From Escherichia coli (GTDB lineage Bacteria; Pseudomonadota; Gammaproteobacteria; Enterobacterales; Enterobacteriaceae): a DNA stretch of 64,000 bases. The notes below the pieces were generated by a model. That model did no database searches. It had not been told where the DNA came from and saw only the letters and a program-made list of their open reading frames with translations. The position numbers and the translations under genes were made by a program. Location of the stretch: assembly GCF_022846255.1 (NCBI RefSeq), contig NZ_AP025682.1; one strand, written 5' to 3'. Positions 29,928 to 51,488 of this stretch are shown here, in pieces; positions within the stretch are counted from its first letter, which is position 1, and the number at the start of each line of letters is the position of its first letter.

Positions 29928-30327
29928 ACAGCCGTAAAAGCGGTAATGTTTTTACGCTGAACGTGTTTCATCTATTTGACGCGCGCAGGTATTTAGCATA
30001 CAAGGAGTACCGATTTGAGAGTTGGTGCTCTTCGCTGCCTGCGTTCCATGATGATGATTTATCATTCAGGCGGCATTTTGCTGTCTTTTTTACGCTAATC
30101 TTACCCGGTGATTTATCGCCAGAGCGGTGGTAGCAAGGCAGCGCGCTTGCAGCGACCAGATATGCAGAGGGATGGGTGATTTATTCAGTTGCCAAACCCG
30201 CTGGAGTATTGAGATAATTTTCAGTCTGACTCTCGCAATATCTTATGAGGTTTCAGTTCATGTCCTGCGGCGCTCTCTGAGCGAAGCGGGTTTATCATTA
30301 ACGAATAGTCTTAGTAGTACCGAAAAA

Positions 30328-30849
30328 ATGGCAGAGAAACGCAATATCTTTCTGGTTGGGCCTATGGGTGCCGGAAAAAGCACTATTGGGCGCCAGTTAG
30401 CTCAACAACTCAATATGGAATTTTACGATTCCGATCAAGAGATTGAGAAACGAACCGGAGCTGATGTGGGCTGGGTTTTCGATTTAGAAGGCGAAGAAGG
30501 CTTCCGCGATCGCGAAGAAAAGGTCATCAATGAGTTGACCGAGAAACAGGGTATTGTGCTGGCTACTGGCGGCGGCTCTGTGAAATCCCGTGAAACGCGT
30601 AACCGTCTTTCCGCTCGTGGCGTTGTCGTTTATCTTGAAACGACCATCGAAAAGCAACTTGCACGCACGCAGCGTGATAAAAAACGCCCGTTGCTGCACG
30701 TTGAAACACCGCCGCGTGAAGTTCTGGAAGCGTTGGCCAATGAACGCAATCCGCTGTATGAAGAGATTGCCGACGTGACCATTCGTACTGATGATCAAAG
30801 CGCTAAAGTGGTTGCAAACCAGATTATTCACATGCTGGAAAGCAACTAA
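30328..30849 (+). CDS. aroK: shikimate kinase I
   Basis: 173 aa from ATG ([19 protein letters not shown]) at 30328; Walker A motif; ORF-track start is a 67-codon upstream extension. Confidence 0.95.
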
Positions 30850-30905
30850 TTCTGGCTTTATATACACTCGTCTGCGGGTACAGTAATTAAGGTGGATGTC
30901 GCGTT

Positions 30906-31994
30906 ATGGAGAGGATTGTCGTTACTCTCGGGGAACGTAGTTACCCAATTACCATCGCATCTGGTTTGTTTAATGAACCAGCTTCATTCTTACCGCTGAA
31001 ATCGGGCGAGCAGGTCATGTTGGTCACCAACGAAACCCTGGCTCCTCTGTATCTCGATAAGGTCCGCGGCGTACTTGAACAGGCGGGTGTTAACGTCGAT
31101 AGCGTTATCCTCCCTGACGGCGAGCAGTATAAAAGCCTGGCTGTACTCGATACCGTCTTTACGGCATTGTTACAAAAGCCGCATGGTCGCGATACTACTC
31201 TGGTGGCGCTTGGCGGCGGCGTAGTGGGCGATCTGACCGGCTTCGCGGCGGCGAGTTATCAGCGCGGTGTACGTTTCATTCAAGTCCCGACGACGTTACT
31301 GTCGCAGGTCGATTCCTCCGTTGGCGGCAAAACTGCGGTCAACCATCCCCTCGGTAAAAACATGATTGGCGCGTTCTACCAGCCCGCTTCAGTGGTGGTG
31401 GATCTCGACTGTCTGAAAACGCTTCCCCCGCGTGAGTTAGCGTCGGGGCTGGCAGAAGTCATCAAATACGGCATTATTCTTGACGGTGCGTTTTTTAACT
31501 GGCTGGAAGAGAATCTGGATGCGTTGTTGTGTCTGGACGGTCCGGCAATGGCGTACTGTATTCGCCGTTGTTGTGAGCTGAAAGCAGAAGTTGTCGCCGC
31601 CGACGAGCGCGAAACCGGGTTACGTGCTTTACTGAATCTGGGACACACCTTTGGTCATGCCATTGAAGCTGAAATGGGGTATGGCAATTGGTTACATGGT
31701 GAAGCGGTCGCTGCGGGTATGGTGATGGCGGCGCGGACGTCGGAACGTCTCGGGCAGTTTAGTTCTGCCGAAACGCAGCGTATTATAACCCTGCTCACGC
31801 GGGCTGGGTTACCGGTCAATGGGCCGCGCGAAATGTCCGCGCAGGCGTATTTACCGCATATGCTGCGTGACAAGAAAGTCCTTGCGGGAGAGATGCGCTT
31901 AATTCTTCCGTTGGCAATTGGTAAGAGTGAAGTTCGCAGCGGCGTTTCGCACGAGCTTGTTCTTAACGCCATTGCCGATTGTCAATCAGCGTAA
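30906..31994 (+). CDS. aroB: 3-dehydroquinate synthase
   Basis: 362-aa ORF recognised as AroB. Confidence 0.95.
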
Positions 31995-32085
31995 CAACAA
32001 GAAAGGTCAGGCCGCTTATCAAGCGGTCTATTAGCTTCAGGTTAATTGCAACGTGGTAAGCATTAACCTTTTAGTGGGGTGTTAA

Positions 32086-43242: not shown

Positions 43243-44328
43243 ATGAAGACGTTTCCTCTGCAAAGCCTGACGCTTATTGAGGCGCAGCAAAAGCAGTTTG
43301 CGCTGGTGGACACGATTTGCCGTCATTTTCCTGGCAGCGAGTTTCTTACCTGCGGTGATTTGGGCTTAACGCCGGGGCTAAATCAACCGCGCATTACCCA
43401 GCGTGTGGAACAGGTGCTGGCTGATGCATTTCACGCACAGGCCGCGGCGCTGGTACAGGGCGCGGGTACTGGCGCGATCCGTGCGGCACTGGCGGCTTTG
43501 CTCAAATCGGGGCAGCGTCTTCTGGTGCATGACGCGCCTGTTTACCCGACGACACGGGTTATTATTGAGCAGATGGGGCTAACGCTCATTACGGCTGATT
43601 TCAATGATCTGTCGGCACTGAAGCAGGTTGTTGACGAGCAACTACCGGATGCGGCGCTGGTGCAGCATACGCGCCAGCAGCCACAGGACGGCTACATTCT
43701 GGCAGATGTGCTGGCAACGTTGCGCTCGGCTGGCGTTCCTGCATTAACCGATGACAACTATGCGGTGATGAAAGTGGCGCGAATTGGCTGCGAATGCGGG
43801 GCAAATGTCTCGACTTTTTCCTGCTTCAAGCTGTTTGGGCCGGAGGGTGTTGGCGCGGTGGTAGGCGATGCCGATGTTATTAGTCGGATTCGCTCCACGC
43901 TCTATTCCGGCGGCAGCCAGATTCAGGGCGCTCAGGCGCTGGAAGTCTTGCGTGGGCTGGTGTTTGCGCCAGTGATGCACGCGGTGCAGGCGGGGGTATC
44001 TGAACGGTTGCTGGCCTTGCTCAACGGTGGCGCAGTGGCGGAAGTGAAAAGCGCCGTCATTGCCAATGCGCAGTCGAAGGTGTTGATTGTGGAGTTTCAT
44101 CAGCCGATTGCCGCCAGGGTGCTGGAAGAGGCGCAGAAACTCGGCGCGTTGCCTTACCCGGTGGGCGCGGAGTCGAAATATGAAATCCCGCCGCTCTTCT
44201 ATCGACTTTCCGGAACGTTTCGTCAGGCGAATCCACAATCAGAACATTGCACGATTCGCATTAATCCGAATCGCAGCGGTGAAGAGACGGTGTTGCGGAT
44301 TTTGCGTGAGATTATTGCCAGTATTTAA
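43243..44328 (+). CDS. yhfS: PLP-dependent aminotransferase-like protein YhfS
   Basis: 361-aa ORF recognised as YhfS. Confidence 0.85.
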   Translation: MKTFPLQSLTLIEAQQKQFALVDTICRHFPGSEFLTCGDLGLTPGLNQPRITQRVEQVLADAFHAQAAALVQGAGTGAIRAALAALLKSGQRLLVHDAPVYPTTRVIIEQMGLTLITADFNDLSALKQVVDEQLPDAALVQHTRQQPQDGYILADVLATLRSAGVPALTDDNYAVMKVARIGCECGANVSTFSCFKLFGPEGVGAVVGDADVISRIRSTLYSGGSQIQGAQALEVLRGLVFAPVMHAVQAGVSERLLALLNGGAVAEVKSAVIANAQSKVLIVEFHQPIAARVLEEAQKLGALPYPVGAESKYEIPPLFYRLSGTFRQANPQSEHCTIRINPNRSGEETVLRILREIIASI

Positions 44329-44369
44329 TCTTGTGAATGATGTTTTCGAAAAGAATGCAGAAATAAATA

Positions 44370-44393
44370 CGCCCCCGGGTAATCCCGAGGGCG
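44370..44393. terminator. possible bidirectional terminator hairpin between convergent yhfS and yhfL
   Basis: cgcccccggg-taat-cccgagggcg imperfect hairpin (one central mismatch) in the 106-bp spacer. Confidence 0.35.
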
Positions 44394-44434
44394 CCAGGCA
44401 ATTAAACCGACGTTAACCTATTTCTATCAATGGG

Positions 44435-44602
44435 TTACTGTGCAGTAGGACCGCAGCCACCAATGATTTTAGAAATAGAAATTGCCGGGTGTAGCAGGTA
44501 GTCGTAAGAGCAGTTCTTATCACGGTTTTCAATATGACCAGTACATGCAGTTAACGTAGCCAGTACTGCGCCTACCAGTGCAACTTTAATAAATTTGTTC
44601 AT
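44435..44602 (-). CDS. yhfL: small lipoprotein YhfL (55 aa)
   Basis: Manual translation: MNKFIKVALVGAVLATLTACTGHIENRDKNCSYDYLLHPAISISKIIGGCGPTAQ; lipobox LTAC; below ORF-track size cutoff. Confidence 0.85.
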   Translation of the reverse strand: MNKFIKVALVGAVLATLTACTGHIENRDKNCSYDYLLHPAISISKIIGGCGPTAQ

Positions 44603-44814
44603 TAACATTCCCTATGTATTATATAGATTAATATTCATTGATTATATGAATATAAACAGACTGCTCATTAAGAACGATACAGGATTAATTAATTGGTGCC
44701 AGTGACTGAATGACTTAATTTTGTAAGTCGCTGTAACGATAAATATGGCGGGTCAAAAATAAATGATGTTTGTTAATTAGTTGTTTTTTATTTGCTGAAT
44801 ATATAAAGAAAGTT

Positions 44815-44843
44815 GTAAAAGAAAAGGCCAGAATTCTCTGGCC
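44815..44843 (-). terminator. rho-independent terminator downstream of cysG
   Basis: ggccagaattctctggcc hairpin followed by T-rich run on minus strand, just after cysG stop. Confidence 0.55.
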
Positions 44844-44852
44844 CGGGTTAAA

Positions 44853-46226
44853 TTAATGGTTAGAGAACCAGTTCAGTTTATCGCGCAGGCCAACAACCCG
44901 ACCAATAATAATTAGCGATGGACTGTTCATTTGCTGCGCCAGTTCGCCCAGTTGTGTGAGCGTACCGTCAATCACGCGCTGCGTGACTGCCGTTCCGTTT
45001 TCGACAATTGCCACCGGCATTTCGCCAGGCATACCGTATTCAATCAGCTTTTGCTGAATAGTTGCAGCCTGATTCAGCCCCATATAAAACACCAGCGTCT
45101 GTTTTTCTGCCGCCAGGTTTTCCCAGTCCAGCTCGCCACCGGTTTTTAAGTGTCCAGTAATTAAGCGTACGCTCTGGGCATAATCGCGATGCGTGAGCGG
45201 AATACCCGAATAGGCAGAGCAACCAGAAGCTGCGGTAATACCCGGAACCACCGAGAATGGAATACCCGCGTTGCACAGTGTTTCCAGCTCTTCTCCGCCA
45301 CGCCCGAAAATAAACGGATCGCCGCCTTTCAGACGCACCACGCGTTTACCTTTTTGCGCTTCCCGCAGCAGGATCTGGTTAATCTCTTCCTGCGGTACGC
45401 AGTGGTATCCCGCGCGTTTGCCGACGAAAACGCGATCAGCATCGCGGCGTACCAGATTCATAATATCGTCAGAAACCAGACGGTCGTAGACCACCACATC
45501 AGCCTGCTGAATTTGTTGCAGACCTTTCAGTGTCAGCAGTCCGGCATCGCCCGGACCTGCACCAACCAGCACCACTTCACCGCGATGGTCGAGCGGTTCG
45601 TTGATTAACTGTTCGGTGGTTTCAGTAATGGCTTTCTGATCGTTGTTGGCCAGCGACTGCGCCAGGCGGTCGTTAACGAATAATTTCTCCCAGAAACGGC
45701 GACGCTCACCCATCGTGGCGAACTGTTGTTTCACTCGCCCGCGTAATTGCCCGGCGTATTTCGCTACCTGGCCCAGATGTAACGGCAGCAGTGATTCAAG
45801 TTTTTCGCGCAACAGGCGCGCCAGAACCGGAGAGGTGCCGCCAGAGGAGACCGCTACCATGAGCGGCGAGCGGTCAATAATCGACGGCATAATAAAGCTG
45901 GCGGCTTTCGGCGCATCGACCACGTTACAGAAGATGCGACGAGCTTCAGCGGCTTCGCTGACGCGCTGGTTAAGCACGTCATCATCTGTCGCTGCAATCG
46001 CCAGCCAGCAGGTGTCGAGAAGGCTTTCATCAAATGGCCCTTCGACGAGGGTTAACATGCCTGCATCTGCCCATGCGGTGAACTGTGGAATAAACGCTAA
46101 TGCATTCACCGTTAAGCGAGCGCCTGCGTCTAACAGCAACCTTGCTTTGCGTTCCGCGACATCACCACCGCCGACAATCAGACAGTCGCGATCGCGTAAT
46201 TGGCAAAATATAGGCAAATGATCCAC
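44853..46226 (-). CDS. cysG: siroheme synthase (multifunctional)
   Basis: 457-aa ORF recognised as CysG. Confidence 0.95.
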
Positions 46227-46244
46227 GTAAAAACCCCTTAGTAA

Positions 46245-47051
46245 TTAACCGGCAGCCGTTTCAGTTTGATTAAATTTGTCCGCAACCGGACGATTCGCTT
46301 TCGGCGTAGCATACCAATAACCCAATCCCATGAATACGGCACCCGATAAAGTATTACCCAGCGTCACCCACAGCAGGTTATGACCAATACCCGCCAGCGT
46401 GTAGGCTTCGCTGTGGTTGCCGAACCAGGAGAGGGCGAACAGCGTCATGTTAGCGATGGAGTGCTCGTAGCCGGACGCGATAAATGCCAGCAAACACCAC
46501 CAGATAGCGATAAATTTCGCCGCCCCTTCAGTGCGCAGCGCCATCCAGATTGCCAGGCAAACCAGCCAGTTACACAATGCACCTTTGAAGAACAGTACCA
46601 TTGCCGGTGCAGTGGTTTTAGCCAGCGCAACGGAGTGAACGATGCTGGTATCTACCGGCAGCAGGCTACCGCCGCCCCAGCTATAAAGCATGGCAACGAA
46701 GACGGAACCGACCAGGTTACCCAGCCAGGTTTGCGGCAGGATTGCCCACATTTGCCCGTGGCTGATAGTGCCCGCTTTCACCCCAAAGGTGAGGAACATG
46801 GTGTGTCCGGTGAACAATTCAGAACCGGCGATAATCACCAGCGTTAAGGCGATACCAAAGGTCGCGCCCATCACCAGAGGACGTACGGACGGGTCGAGCA
46901 AATTACCGAGCGTGAAAATCAGGATGATCCCAAGACCCACATACGCGCCCGCCATGGCGGAGCTGACCCAAAAGCCGAGCGGGTTATTTGCCGACAGGCG
47001 TGCAATGCGCGCAGCGTTAGCCGCACACTTAGTAATAGTGTCTGTAAACAT
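46245..47051 (-). CDS. nirC: nitrite transporter NirC (FNT family)
   Basis: 268 aa from ATG (MFTDTITKCAANAARIA) at 47051; ORF-track start is a 36-codon extension. Confidence 0.92.
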   Translation of the reverse strand: MFTDTITKCAANAARIARLSANNPLGFWVSSAMAGAYVGLGIILIFTLGNLLDPSVRPLVMGATFGIALTLVIIAGSELFTGHTMFLTFGVKAGTISHGQMWAILPQTWLGNLVGSVFVAMLYSWGGGSLLPVDTSIVHSVALAKTTAPAMVLFFKGALCNWLVCLAIWMALRTEGAAKFIAIWWCLLAFIASGYEHSIANMTLFALSWFGNHSEAYTLAGIGHNLLWVTLGNTLSGAVFMGLGYWYATPKANRPVADKFNQTETAAG

Positions 47052-47178
47052 TTGATTATCCTTTAAAAAAAATAAAAACAAAAAATAAAACAAAAAGTTT
47101 AAAAAATGTCCTGCAATATACCGAAGGTTATTACAGGACCATGCAAAAAGGGGAGGCATTGCGCCTCCCGTTAAAATA

Positions 47179-47505
47179 TTAACCGCGCAGCTGTACCACG
47201 CCGTCTTTCACTCGCGCGTCGTAATGCTTGACGGAAAACTGTTCGTCTTCCATGCACAAGCCGTCGCTTAAGCGAAAACGCTGTTTTTTCAGCGGGCTGG
47301 CGACCCACAGCTCGCCCTGGTGTTCCGCAATCAGCCCGCGTGACAGCACGCTGGACTCGAAGAACGGATCGATGTTGCTGATCGCAAACACCTGGTCGCT
47401 GTGATACGGGCGGAAAATTGCTACCTGCTCGTCACCTAACAGCGCGCAGACGCCGGTTTCAGGCAGGATGTCATCGATTTTGCAGATGTCTTTCCACTGG
47501 CTCAT
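47179..47505 (-). CDS. nirD: nitrite reductase (NADH) small subunit
   Basis: 108-aa ORF; start overlaps nirB stop (ATGA). Confidence 0.94.
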   Translation of the reverse strand: MSQWKDICKIDDILPETGVCALLGDEQVAIFRPYHSDQVFAISNIDPFFESSVLSRGLIAEHQGELWVASPLKKQRFRLSDGLCMEDEQFSVKHYDARVKDGVVQLRG

Positions 47506-50045
47506 GCGTTGTCCTCCACCAGAGTTACCGGGATACGTTCATACGGCGTTGCCGGACGGTGCTGTTCGCGCTCTGGTACCATCTGCACGTTCGGGTCACG
47601 CTTGTCGCTGTTGATGAAGTGTTTGAAGCGAGTCTGCGCAGACGGCGTATTGACCGTTTCAGTCCACTCACACACTACCGCTTCACGCAGGCGCGCCATC
47701 TCTTCTTCCAGATGAGCGTTCAGCCCCAGTTTGTCGTCAATGATCACCGCTTTCAGGTAATCGATGCCGCCTTCGAGGTTTTCTAACCACGGCGCGGTAC
47801 GCGTCAGTTTGTCGGCGGTACGGATGTAGAACATCATGAAGCGGTCGAGATATTTGATCAGCGTTTCGCGATCGATATCCGCTGCCAGCAGATCCGCATG
47901 ACGCGGTTTCATGCCGCCGTTACCGCAAACGTACAGGTTCCAGCCTTTTTCGGTGGCGATAATACCCACGTCTTTACCCTGAGCTTCTGAACATTCACGG
48001 GTACAGCCGGAGACACCGAACTTCATTTTGTGCGGCGTACGGATACCTTTGTAGCGGTTTTCCAGTTCCACGCCGAGGCCGACGCTGTCGCCAACGCCGT
48101 AGCGGCACCAGGTGCTACCCACGCAGGTTTTCGCCATACGCAGTGCTTTCGCATAGGCATGACCGGTTTCGAAACCGGCTTCAATCAGCTGACGCCAGAT
48201 TTCCGGCAGATCGTCTTTCTGTGCGCCAAACATCGCCAGGCGCTGGGAGCCGGTGATTTTGGTGTAGAGATTAAATTCACGCGCGATACGACCCACTGCC
48301 ATCAGCCCTTCCGGGGTGATTTCACCGCCCGGAGAACGCGGGATCACCGAGTAGGTGCCATCTTTCTGGATGTTAGCGAGGAAGTTGTCGTTAGAATCCT
48401 GCAGCGGAGTATGTTCCGGCTTCAGAATGTATTCGTTCCAGCAGGAGGCCAGCAGCGAACCGACGGTCGGTTTACAAACTTCACAACCGTAGCCTTTGCC
48501 GTGTTTCGCCAGCAGCTCTTCGAAGGTTTTAATGCCTTCAACGCGGATCAAATGGAACAGTTCCTGACGCGAATAAGCAAAGTGTTCGCACAGGTTGTTG
48601 TTAACTTCGATGCCCTGTTTCGCCAGTTCCGCGTTCAGTACCTGAGTGACCAGCGGGATACAGCCACCGCAGCCAGTACCCGCTTTGGTTTCAGCTTTCA
48701 GCGCCGCAACGGTGTGGCAGCCTTTGTTGATGGCAGCAATCAGATCACCTTTGGTGACGTCGAAGCAGGAGCAGATTTGCGCGCTGTCCGGCAGTTTATC
48801 AACACCGATAGACGGCTTACCGCTACCCGAGTGCGCCGGCAGAATCAGAGAATCCGGGTTTTCCGGCAGCTCGATAGCATTCAGCACCAGTTGCAGCAGG
48901 TTGCCGTAGTCGCTGGTATCGCCCACCAGTACCGCACCGAGCAGGGTTTTGTTGTCTTCGCTGACAATAAGGCGTTTGTAGATCTCTTTGCTTTCGTCGA
49001 GGTAAACGTAGCTACGTGCGCCAGGCGTGCGACCGTGCGCATCACCAATACCACCTACGTCTACGCCCAGCAGTTTCAACTTGGCGCTAAGGTCAGCACC
49101 TTCAAAGGCGTTTTCGCTACCAAGAATATGGTCAACGGCGACCTGCGCCATTTTGTAGCCAGGTGCTACCAGACCAAATACACGGTTGTTCCAGCTTGCG
49201 CATTCACCGATGGCGTAGATATCCGGATCGGAAGTCTGGCAGGAATCATTGATGACAATACCCCCACGCGGAGCAACGTCCAGACCACACTGGGTTGCCA
49301 GCTTATCGCGCGGACGGATACCGGTTGAGAAGACGATAAAGTCGACTTCCAGCTCGCTGCCGTCGGCAAAACGCATGGTTTTACGCGCTTCGACACCTTC
49401 CTGCACAATCTCAAGGGTGTTTTTGCTGGTGTGAACGCGCACGCCCATACTTTCGATTTTGCGACGCAGCTGCTCGCCACCCATCTGATCAAGCTGTTCC
49501 GCCATCAGCATAGGGGCAAATTCGATAACGTGGGTTTCAATACCTAAGTTTTTCAGCGCGCCAGCGGCTTCCAGACCTAACAGGCCGCCACCAACAACGG
49601 CACCGCGTTTGCTGCGACGGGCACAGGATTCAATGGCGTTGAGGTCTTCAATGGTGCGATAGACAAAGCAGTCCTGAGTATCAGAACCTTTGATTGGCGG
49701 GATCCACGGGTAGGAACCGGTTGCCATGATCAGCTTGTCATAAAAAACGGTACGTCCGGCGCTGGAGTGAATCACCTTCTCCTGACGGTTGATGGTGATA
49801 GCGCGTTCGCCGACCAGAACTTTGATGCCGTGTTTCTCGTAGAAGCCTTCGCGCACCAGCGACAGCTCTTCGGCGGTGTGGTGAGAGAAGTAAGACGAGA
49901 GGTGTACGCGGTCATAAGCGATGCGCGGTTCTTCACAGAAAACGGTAATATCAAAGTTGGCCGCATCAGATTTATCAAGAAGATCTTCGATAAAGCGATG
50001 GCCGACCATACCGTTACCGATAATTGCGAGTCTGACTTTGCTCAT
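47502..50045 (-). CDS. nirB: nitrite reductase (NADH) large subunit
   Basis: 847-aa ORF with N-terminal FAD/NAD Rossmann motif and siroheme/Fe-S Cys clusters. Confidence 0.96.
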   Translation of the reverse strand: MSKVRLAIIGNGMVGHRFIEDLLDKSDAANFDITVFCEEPRIAYDRVHLSSYFSHHTAEELSLVREGFYEKHGIKVLVGERAITINRQEKVIHSSAGRTVFYDKLIMATGSYPWIPPIKGSDTQDCFVYRTIEDLNAIESCARRSKRGAVVGGGLLGLEAAGALKNLGIETHVIEFAPMLMAEQLDQMGGEQLRRKIESMGVRVHTSKNTLEIVQEGVEARKTMRFADGSELEVDFIVFSTGIRPRDKLATQCGLDVAPRGGIVINDSCQTSDPDIYAIGECASWNNRVFGLVAPGYKMAQVAVDHILGSENAFEGADLSAKLKLLGVDVGGIGDAHGRTPGARSYVYLDESKEIYKRLIVSEDNKTLLGAVLVGDTSDYGNLLQLVLNAIELPENPDSLILPAHSGSGKPSIGVDKLPDSAQICSCFDVTKGDLIAAINKGCHTVAALKAETKAGTGCGGCIPLVTQVLNAELAKQGIEVNNNLCEHFAYSRQELFHLIRVEGIKTFEELLAKHGKGYGCEVCKPTVGSLLASCWNEYILKPEHTPLQDSNDNFLANIQKDGTYSVIPRSPGGEITPEGLMAVGRIAREFNLYTKITGSQRLAMFGAQKDDLPEIWRQLIEAGFETGHAYAKALRMAKTCVGSTWCRYGVGDSVGLGVELENRYKGIRTPHKMKFGVSGCTRECSEAQGKDVGIIATEKGWNLYVCGNGGMKPRHADLLAADIDRETLIKYLDRFMMFYIRTADKLTRTAPWLENLEGGIDYLKAVIIDDKLGLNAHLEEEMARLREAVVCEWTETVNTPSAQTRFKHFINSDKRDPNVQMVPEREQHRPATPYERIPVTLVEDNA

Positions 50046-50103
50046 TTTTGCCTCGATTTCTTTTCTATTACCGCCTACCTTAACGATTCAGCAACCCCGC
50101 TTA

Positions 50104-50117
50104 TTGATGTAAATCAA
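50104..50117 (-). promoter_or_regulatory. FNR binding site of the nirB promoter
   Basis: Perfect TTGAT-gtaa-ATCAA palindrome about 60 bp upstream of nirB ATG; position consistent with the known FNR-dependent nir promoter. Confidence 0.8.
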
Positions 50118-50130
50118 ATTCACCTTTATA

Positions 50131-50146
50131 TACTCCTTAAGGGGTA
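50131..50146 (-). promoter_or_regulatory. NarL/NarP 7-2-7 heptamer pair of the nirB promoter
   Basis: TACCCCT-TA-AGGAGTA on minus strand (tactccttaaggggta on +), inverted TACYYMT-type heptamers upstream of the FNR site. Confidence 0.65.
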
Positions 50147-50306
50147 TATTGCTGATTTGTATAAATTTTCTTAAGTCACGGAATTGTCTGACATTTCATG
50201 TTTGTACAAAAAACAGACAAATTGAGCGGGTTTATAGAAATAGATGTACGTAGCGCGGTAAGAGAGGAAAAGGCCGGACGACGATAGTGCCGCCCGGCAT
50301 GAGTAA

Positions 50307-51488
50307 TTAATGAGAGGTCAGGGTGTTATGCTGACGGTGACGGCTGACGAAACCTAACAGGAAGCACATCACAAAGACGACAGCGTACAGACCGTTTGCC
50401 GTCAGCAGCGCCGCCTGCGGACCGCTATGTTCAACAATCGGGCCGGTAACCACAAAGGTCAACATAGTACCGATGGTCCCGCAGGTCAGGACAAAGTTAA
50501 CCAGTTTTGGCGACGGTACTTTGGTCTGCTGTGAACCCAAAGTGATGATGGTGGTATAGATCGCGCTGGAGAAGAAGCCCAGGGCGAGAATTGACCACGC
50601 CATATGTGCCGGTGTTCCGGTGTTAAAGACGTACATCAGAATCGCAGCCAGACCAGCCAGTACGGTCAGAATGCGTTGCAAATCAAAGAAGCGAAGAATA
50701 AAGCTGAACGCCCACATGCCGACCATGTATGACATCCAGAAGTTACTCACCAGCGTGCCAGCGTCGTTCAGGCTCATGCCCAGGCCTTTGGCATACTCCG
50801 GCACCCAGGAGATAAAACCTAACTGACCGAGGATGTAGCACAGTGCCGCAATGGAGAGAAACAGCACGCCGATCCCCCATTTTTCTTTCGCTACCGGAGC
50901 GTCCGTTTTTGGCGCATGTTTACCCAGCGCCGGGAACTCACAGCCGAAGGTCAGAATAAAGATAGCGACGTACACCAGCCCGATGCAGGCATAAACCCAG
51001 TACCACTCAATGCTGCGCGCCAGCAGAAACGCGGCGATCATTGGGAAAATCATCCCGGCCATACTGAAGAAGGAGTCGGTAAATAACAGGCGTGAACCGC
51101 GCTGACGTCCTTCATACATTTGTGTTACCAGGAATGTACCAATCGACATGGTGATGCCGCTGACCACCCCGAGAATGAACATCGCCGCCGAGAACAGTGC
51201 CAGGCTGTGGCTGAACATCAAACCGGCAACCGCCAGCACCATCAGGAGAAAGCCAAAACGTAACTGCGTTTTCAACGGGACGATTTCCATCAGCCAGGCG
51301 TTGAGGAAGATAGAGATTAAAATGCCGGCGTTGAGGAAGGTGAAGGTATTACTCATACTGGAAACAGGCAGATTGAAATAATCGGCGATATTTCCCATCA
51401 CCATCCCGGTGACAATAACCAACGCACCGGTCAGTGCGTAGGAGAGAAAGCTAATCCATGTGAGCTTGATGCGATTGCTGTTAGTCAT
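50307..51488 (-). CDS. tsgA: MFS-type membrane protein TsgA
   Basis: 393-aa polytopic membrane ORF. Confidence 0.9.

Follow-up and report, generated by a model that had tools for sequence, protein, structure and literature searches.

Within a 64,000-nucleotide stretch of Escherichia coli DNA (hereafter, the window), the region at positions 50046-50306 is, with high confidence, the native promoter of the nir operon (pnir), and it belongs to the class II FNR-dependent promoters. It carries an FNR site and a 7-2-7 site for NarL/NarP, and both sites are kept in orthologous nirB promoters of other genera. In one base of the 7-2-7 site and at nine upstream positions, the region differs from pnir of E. 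coli K-12.

Positions 50046-50306 (261 bp) make up the entire tsgA-nirB spacer, a non-coding gap between two minus-strand genes, as defined by the positions of open reading frames and by alignment to K-12 MG1655 (NC_000913.3) and strain SMS-3-5. The upstream gene, tsgA (50307..51488, minus strand, 393 aa), has the same orientation as nirB; its DNA is 97.6% identical to that of K-12 tsgA, with 2 amino-acid differences. Directly downstream of the promoter is the nirB-nirD-nirC-cysG operon (44853..50045, minus strand), which is intact and consists of nirB (47502-50045, 847 aa, with the ATG at 50045), nirD (47179-47505), nirC (46245-47051), and cysG (44853-46226). Each of these four genes matches its K-12 counterpart over the full length, without internal stops and with 1-2 amino-acid differences. 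Gene identities were taken from the alignments to MG1655 and SMS-3-5 (annotated order tsgA, nirB, nirD, nirC, cysG), and the operon annotation from K-12 and FDAARGOS_1254. With a textbook nir regulatory region and an intact operon, the chromosome here is ordinary E. coli.

Immediately after tsgA, a terminator scan found a terminator-like hairpin (50273..50298, minus strand) with 10 stem pairs (8 G-C), a 6-nt loop, and the T-rich tail CTTTTCCTCT. This hairpin likely insulates pnir from tsgA read-through. A search of the whole 64-kb window with Rfam at the gathering threshold gave no matches, so that no known RNA element was detected in the intergenic region.

The FNR site, TTGATTTACATCAA, is located at 50117..50104 on the minus strand (plus-strand form TTGATGTAAATCAA, 50104-50117). 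All 10 consensus bases of TTGAT-N4-ATCAA, the FNR consensus as given in PMC4886647, are matched. The site is the sole TTGATNNNNATCAA match in the window, where 0.07 matches would be expected by chance, and at least one consensus match was present in 6 of 100 shuffles of the window. Its bases are the same as in MG1655. The centre of the site, 50110.5, corresponds to -41.5 from the inferred transcription start discussed below; this is a class II position and the one given for FNR at the nirBDC-cysG promoter in the FNR regulon table (PMC3688515). Weaker FNR-like words, with 2 mismatches, also occur nearby, e.g., TTTATACAAATCAG at -120 from the ATG.

The second site, TACCCCT-TA-AGGAGTA, lies at 50146..50131 on the minus strand (plus-strand form TACTCCTTAAGGGGTA), with 13 bp between it and the FNR site and 28 bp from centre to centre. 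It is a 7-2-7 arrangement as defined in PMC10853779, built from heptamers of the consensus TACYYMT, in which M is A or C (PMC4886647). There are no mismatches to inverted TACYYMT heptamers 2 bp apart, and the site is the sole TACYYMT-NN-AKRRGTA match in the window (0.00 expected; none in 100 shuffles). Its centre, 50138.5, is at -69.5 from the inferred start, where NarL is centred at pnir (PMC10853779). A full-text literature search for the 16-mers TACCCATTAAGGAGTA, TACCCCTTAAGGAGTA, and TACCCCTATAGGGGTA returned only irrelevant matches, to 7-mers.

A preliminary description of this region had reported a perfect FNR palindrome and an adjacent, intact NarL heptamer pair in the nirB promoter. 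The promoter assignment is supported by the tsgA and nirB flanks and by identity to K-12 from -71 past the ATG. The FNR half-sites do match the consensus exactly, but the spacer, TTAC, is not self-complementary, and the palindrome is therefore made up of the two 5-bp half-sites alone. The 7-2-7 site is intact, an exact match and unique in the window, and would be labelled more accurately as a NarL/NarP site; it is adjacent to the FNR site in the sense of the distances given above. Both motifs are present with the sequences reported, although the FNR site had been quoted from the plus strand and the 7-2-7 from the minus strand. The coordinates 50046-50306 hold both motifs but span the whole intergenic region.

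We infer that transcription starts at an A at 50069 on the minus strand (+1), since this one choice gives both published centres, -41.5 for FNR and -69.5 for NarL; the leader would then be 24 nt long. A weak -10 hexamer, TAAGGT (50082..50077, minus strand; -13 to -8), was assigned from the published FNR position, and a Shine-Dalgarno sequence, GAGG (50051-50054, minus strand), is found upstream of the nirB ATG. A conserved sequence that overlaps the -10 region, GCTGAATCG (50092..50084), presumably resembles the Cra half-site of pnir; such a half-site was reportedly observed at this promoter by Tyson et al. in 1997. A scan for sigma-70 consensus promoters over 49900-50450 found no promoter-like sites, and pnir has no -35 consensus. 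The lack of a consensus sigma-70 promoter or -35 is expected where a promoter depends on an activator, and does not count against pnir.

Two candidate sites for nucleoid proteins lie farther upstream. A Fis-like 15-mer, GTCTGTTTTTTGTAC (50204..50218, minus strand), is centred at -142, and we take it to be the 'Fis I' site of Browning et al. (2000/2004). The block AAATCA (50158..50153, minus strand; -89 to -84) is located inside AATCAGCAATATA, an IHF-like core whose position agrees with that of the published IHF I site (-88), and this core is a predicted IHF site. An IHF site at -88 clashes with NarL at -69.5 (PMC10853779).

By analogy with published work on K-12, these elements may act together as follows. 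In the absence of oxygen, an FNR dimer would bind TTGATTTACATCAA at -41.5 and recruit RNA polymerase as a class II activator (PMC4886647, PMC3688515), and the recruited polymerase would work on a promoter that has the weak -10 TAAGGT and no -35. Upstream nucleoid proteins (IHF near -88, and Fis) would keep this FNR activation in check. With nitrate or nitrite available, the phosphorylated form of NarL or NarP would bind TACCCCT-TA-AGGAGTA at -69.5; bound phosphorylated NarL would clash with IHF at -88, displace it, and lift the repression (PMC10853779, PMC3688515). The outcome would be full nirB-nirD-nirC-cysG transcription. What is carried over from K-12 in this way is where transcription starts, which proteins bind, and how repression is lifted, and the anaerobic and nitrate/nitrite control of the operon in this strain is a prediction from its DNA.

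Conservation of the promoter was examined within and beyond the species. Of 5427 E. coli records, 5336 share the 91-bp core (-61 to +30) without a single change. For the wider set, one genome per GTDB species was scanned with a degenerate coding pattern of the NirB N-terminus, MSKVRLAIIGNGMV, and this requirement leaves more divergent nirB genes outside the sample. The scan yielded 106 loci from about 100 species, spanning Escherichia, Salmonella, Citrobacter, Enterobacter, Klebsiella, Kluyvera, Pluralibacter, Rahnella, Hafnia, Ewingella, Pectobacterium, and Photobacterium. In nearly all loci, the distance from the start of the FNR site to the ATG is 72 or 71 nt, and in Photobacterium it is 77-79 nt. 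The register of the 7-2-7 site (start 29 nt upstream of the FNR start; centres 28 bp apart) is kept in 104 of 105 usable loci.

Base conservation within the two sites was followed in 82 unique orthologous loci from outside Escherichia. The FNR half-sites hardly vary (G3, A4, T11, and C12, for instance, are each found in 82/82), and the four spacer positions are variable. Likewise, the ends of the 7-2-7 are nearly invariant (T1 81/82, A2 81/82, C3 80/82, T15 82/82, A16 81/82) and the interior varies. Contact bases that are fixed, together with spacers that are free, are the signature of functional protein-binding sites. When scored with a matrix derived from these 82 orthologous sites, the 16-mer of the window reached 26.69 bits, the maximum observed. 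In an ungapped profile of 75 unique enterobacterial sequences, both the block from -22 to about +24, which includes the -10 hexamer, and AAATCA (-89..-84) are at least 95% conserved. Overall, the orthologous nirB promoters of other Enterobacterales and Photobacterium share the FNR-ATG distance and the 28-bp 7-2-7 spacing with the promoter described here, but differ in the heptamer interiors and the FNR spacer, and upstream of about -100 conservation is patchy.

Two records in the comparative set had unusual features. In Photobacterium sanguinicancri, the regions upstream of nirB on two contigs of one genome are identical, including their FNR-like and 7-2-7 sites; this pair could be a duplicated nirB locus or reflect assembly redundancy. 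A record titled Chryseobacterium sp. 18061 has a nirB promoter of the enterobacterial type, and its FNR and NarL sites agree with those of Citrobacter sp. 18056 from the same study, which suggests that the assembly is mislabelled or contaminated.

The conservation data bear on whether the FNR and 7-2-7 motifs are simply chance matches in AT-rich intergenic DNA, with no regulatory role in this strain. AT-rich spacers do yield TTGAT-like and TAC-like words, and FNR-like words with 2 mismatches are indeed present nearby. However, the chance expectation per 64 kb is as low as stated above for both motifs, they are placed and spaced exactly as in the characterised K-12 promoter, and both hold their register across genera as the bases around them drift. 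We consider a chance origin exceedingly improbable, and none of the findings speaks against the pnir assignment. The identity of the regulator at the 7-2-7 site is a separate matter. The site may serve NarP rather than NarL, or the reverse, in which case the label 'NarL heptamer pair' is too narrow, and we judge this to be somewhat probable. According to Darwin et al. in 1997, the 7-2-7 arrangement is reportedly the form that NarP can bind. In addition, NarL and NarP share heptamers of the TACYYMT type as targets (PMC4886647, citing Tyson et al. 1993, 1994). This reading is nevertheless compatible with a functional pnir and merely refines the label to 'NarL/NarP site', and the share of NarL versus NarP use cannot be read from the sequence.

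The functional pnir assigned here is closely similar to that of K-12. In both, the promoter is flanked by tsgA upstream and nirBDC-cysG downstream, and from -71 past the ATG the identity to MG1655 is 100%, a stretch that takes in the FNR site, the -10 TAAGGT, the leader, and the Shine-Dalgarno sequence. This base identity places the sites at their published positions by homology. Farther upstream, the two promoters are alike in having a 7-2-7 site at -69.5, an IHF-like core near -88, and a Fis-like 15-mer at -142. They differ by 10 substitutions in 261 bp, none of which falls between -71 and the start codon. One substitution affects the left NarL heptamer at -72 (50141), which reads TACCCCT here (C) and TACCCAT in K-12 (A); thus, the 7-2-7 is not identical to the characterised K-12 site, although both alleles fit TACYYMT. 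The nine others are upstream of -120, and two of them, at -145 and -137, are inside the Fis I-like site, which is GTCTGTTTTTTGTAC here and GTCTATTTTTTGCAC in K-12 (in notation, GTCT[A>G]TTTTTTG[C>T]AC, with the terminal G and C retained). The remaining seven are at -123, -153, -178, -187, -190, -224, and -235. The changes at -72, in the Fis I-like site, and at these seven positions could make the strength of induction or repression somewhat different from that in K-12.

The statement that the regulatory architecture is as in well-studied strains is correct for the architecture but not for every base, in view of the K-12 heptamer and the nine differences upstream of -120.

The pnir of SMS-3-5 and of 19 other genomes, which together form the best 20 matches, is 99.6% identical to that of the window (1 difference in 261 bases) and also has TACCCCT. 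At 50304 (-235), 3 nt after the tsgA stop, the window has A, and K-12, SMS-3-5, and all of the best 20 matches have G. This private A is located just before the hairpin (50298..50273) and outside any known site.

The distribution of the -72 alleles was analyzed with a 57-mer around 50141. The form found in the window has exact matches in 3806 of 5422 complete E. coli genomes (~70%), including O157:H7 and the BL21 derivative C43(DE3), and the K-12 form in 1204 of 5422 (22%), these counts being bands of identity over the whole 57-mer, not of the base at -72 itself, with other variants in 412 genomes. C at -72 is the commoner E. coli allele and the A of K-12 the minority allele. With C, the two heptamers are also more symmetrical: TACCCCT and TACTCCT differ by 1 mismatch, compared with 2 for the K-12 version. 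The left heptamer reads TACCACT in E. whittamii and three further Escherichia lineages, and CACCACT in E. albertii. Because these other Escherichia carry C at heptamer position 6, this base looks ancestral and the A of K-12 derived.

The only live alternative to the view that this is an ordinary pnir is a quantitative effect of the -72 allele. The promoter would then be K-12-like in kind and not in degree, with C at -72 shifting NarL/NarP occupancy and, together with the changes in the Fis I-like site, altering the magnitude of nitrate/nitrite induction. The base change is genuine and falls inside a binding site, both alleles occur at high frequency (57-mers in 3806 and 1204 of 5422 genomes), C makes the heptamers more symmetrical, and the 16-mer scores slightly above that of K-12 (26.69 vs 26.05 bits with the matrix of 82 orthologous sites). 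However, both alleles satisfy TACYYMT (PMC4886647), orthologous sites freely use C (50) and A (32) at heptamer position 6, and the score gap is just 0.6 bit. The free use of C and A and the small gap suggest near-neutrality, and any effect on induction would be small. We therefore regard a difference in degree as unlikely, and it is more doubtful still that A/C at -72 is a functional regulatory polymorphism. If it were, nitrate/nitrite induction of nir in K-12 would be unrepresentative of most of the species, and the Fis I-like site, with its linked changes, could contribute further.

Several observations concern the window as a whole. We considered that it might not be E. coli sensu stricto, since no complete genome was at least 99% identical over 24 kb. 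Its identity is 97.5% to K-12 and 99.2% to SMS-3-5, compared with 91-95.5% to E. albertii, E. whittamii, and other Escherichia, and almost all differences from K-12 in the genes checked, from tsgA to yhfL, are synonymous. Because identity is higher to K-12 and SMS-3-5 than to other Escherichia and the differences are mostly synonymous, this reading was rejected. Among 5,426 complete E. coli genomes there is no close match over long stretches: the best over 38000-62000 is 98.3%, and for 1-25000 the best among the matches listed is 98.6%, with one record at 99% or higher in the identity bands. Short segments match different strains better, e.g., SMS-3-5 with 99.2% over 6.3 kb around nirB and FDAARGOS_1254 with 99.95% at 30000-32000. 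The pattern resembles that of a recombination mosaic whose lineage is poorly sampled.

Downstream of the nir operon, the fructoselysine operon frlABCDR, which in K-12 sits between yhfL and yhfS, is absent at 44330-44435. Homology to K-12 ends at 44359, and yhfS follows directly after yhfL, as in FDAARGOS_1254. The cysG-yhfL spacer (44603-44852) is AT-rich and unusually variable, with a cluster of small indels when compared with the genome that matches best (gaps at 44627-44822); the bin 44000-46000 has 95.75% identity, compared with 98-99.9% in most other bins. Finally, 1-25000 holds an element that is repeated around E. coli chromosomes, with a median of 8 matching places per genome and a maximum of 21; a short repeat, of the REP/BIME type or similar, seems probable.

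The pnir described here is already known and ordinary, with nothing novel in it, and its value is mainly in quality control, as an internal sanity check. The analysis had two by-products. One is that the NarL/NarP heptamer of K-12 at pnir is a minority allele among complete E. coli genomes. The other is that FNR and 7-2-7 sites with a 28-bp spacing are kept from Escherichia to Photobacterium, which provides comparative support for the architecture that was defined by experiment in K-12.
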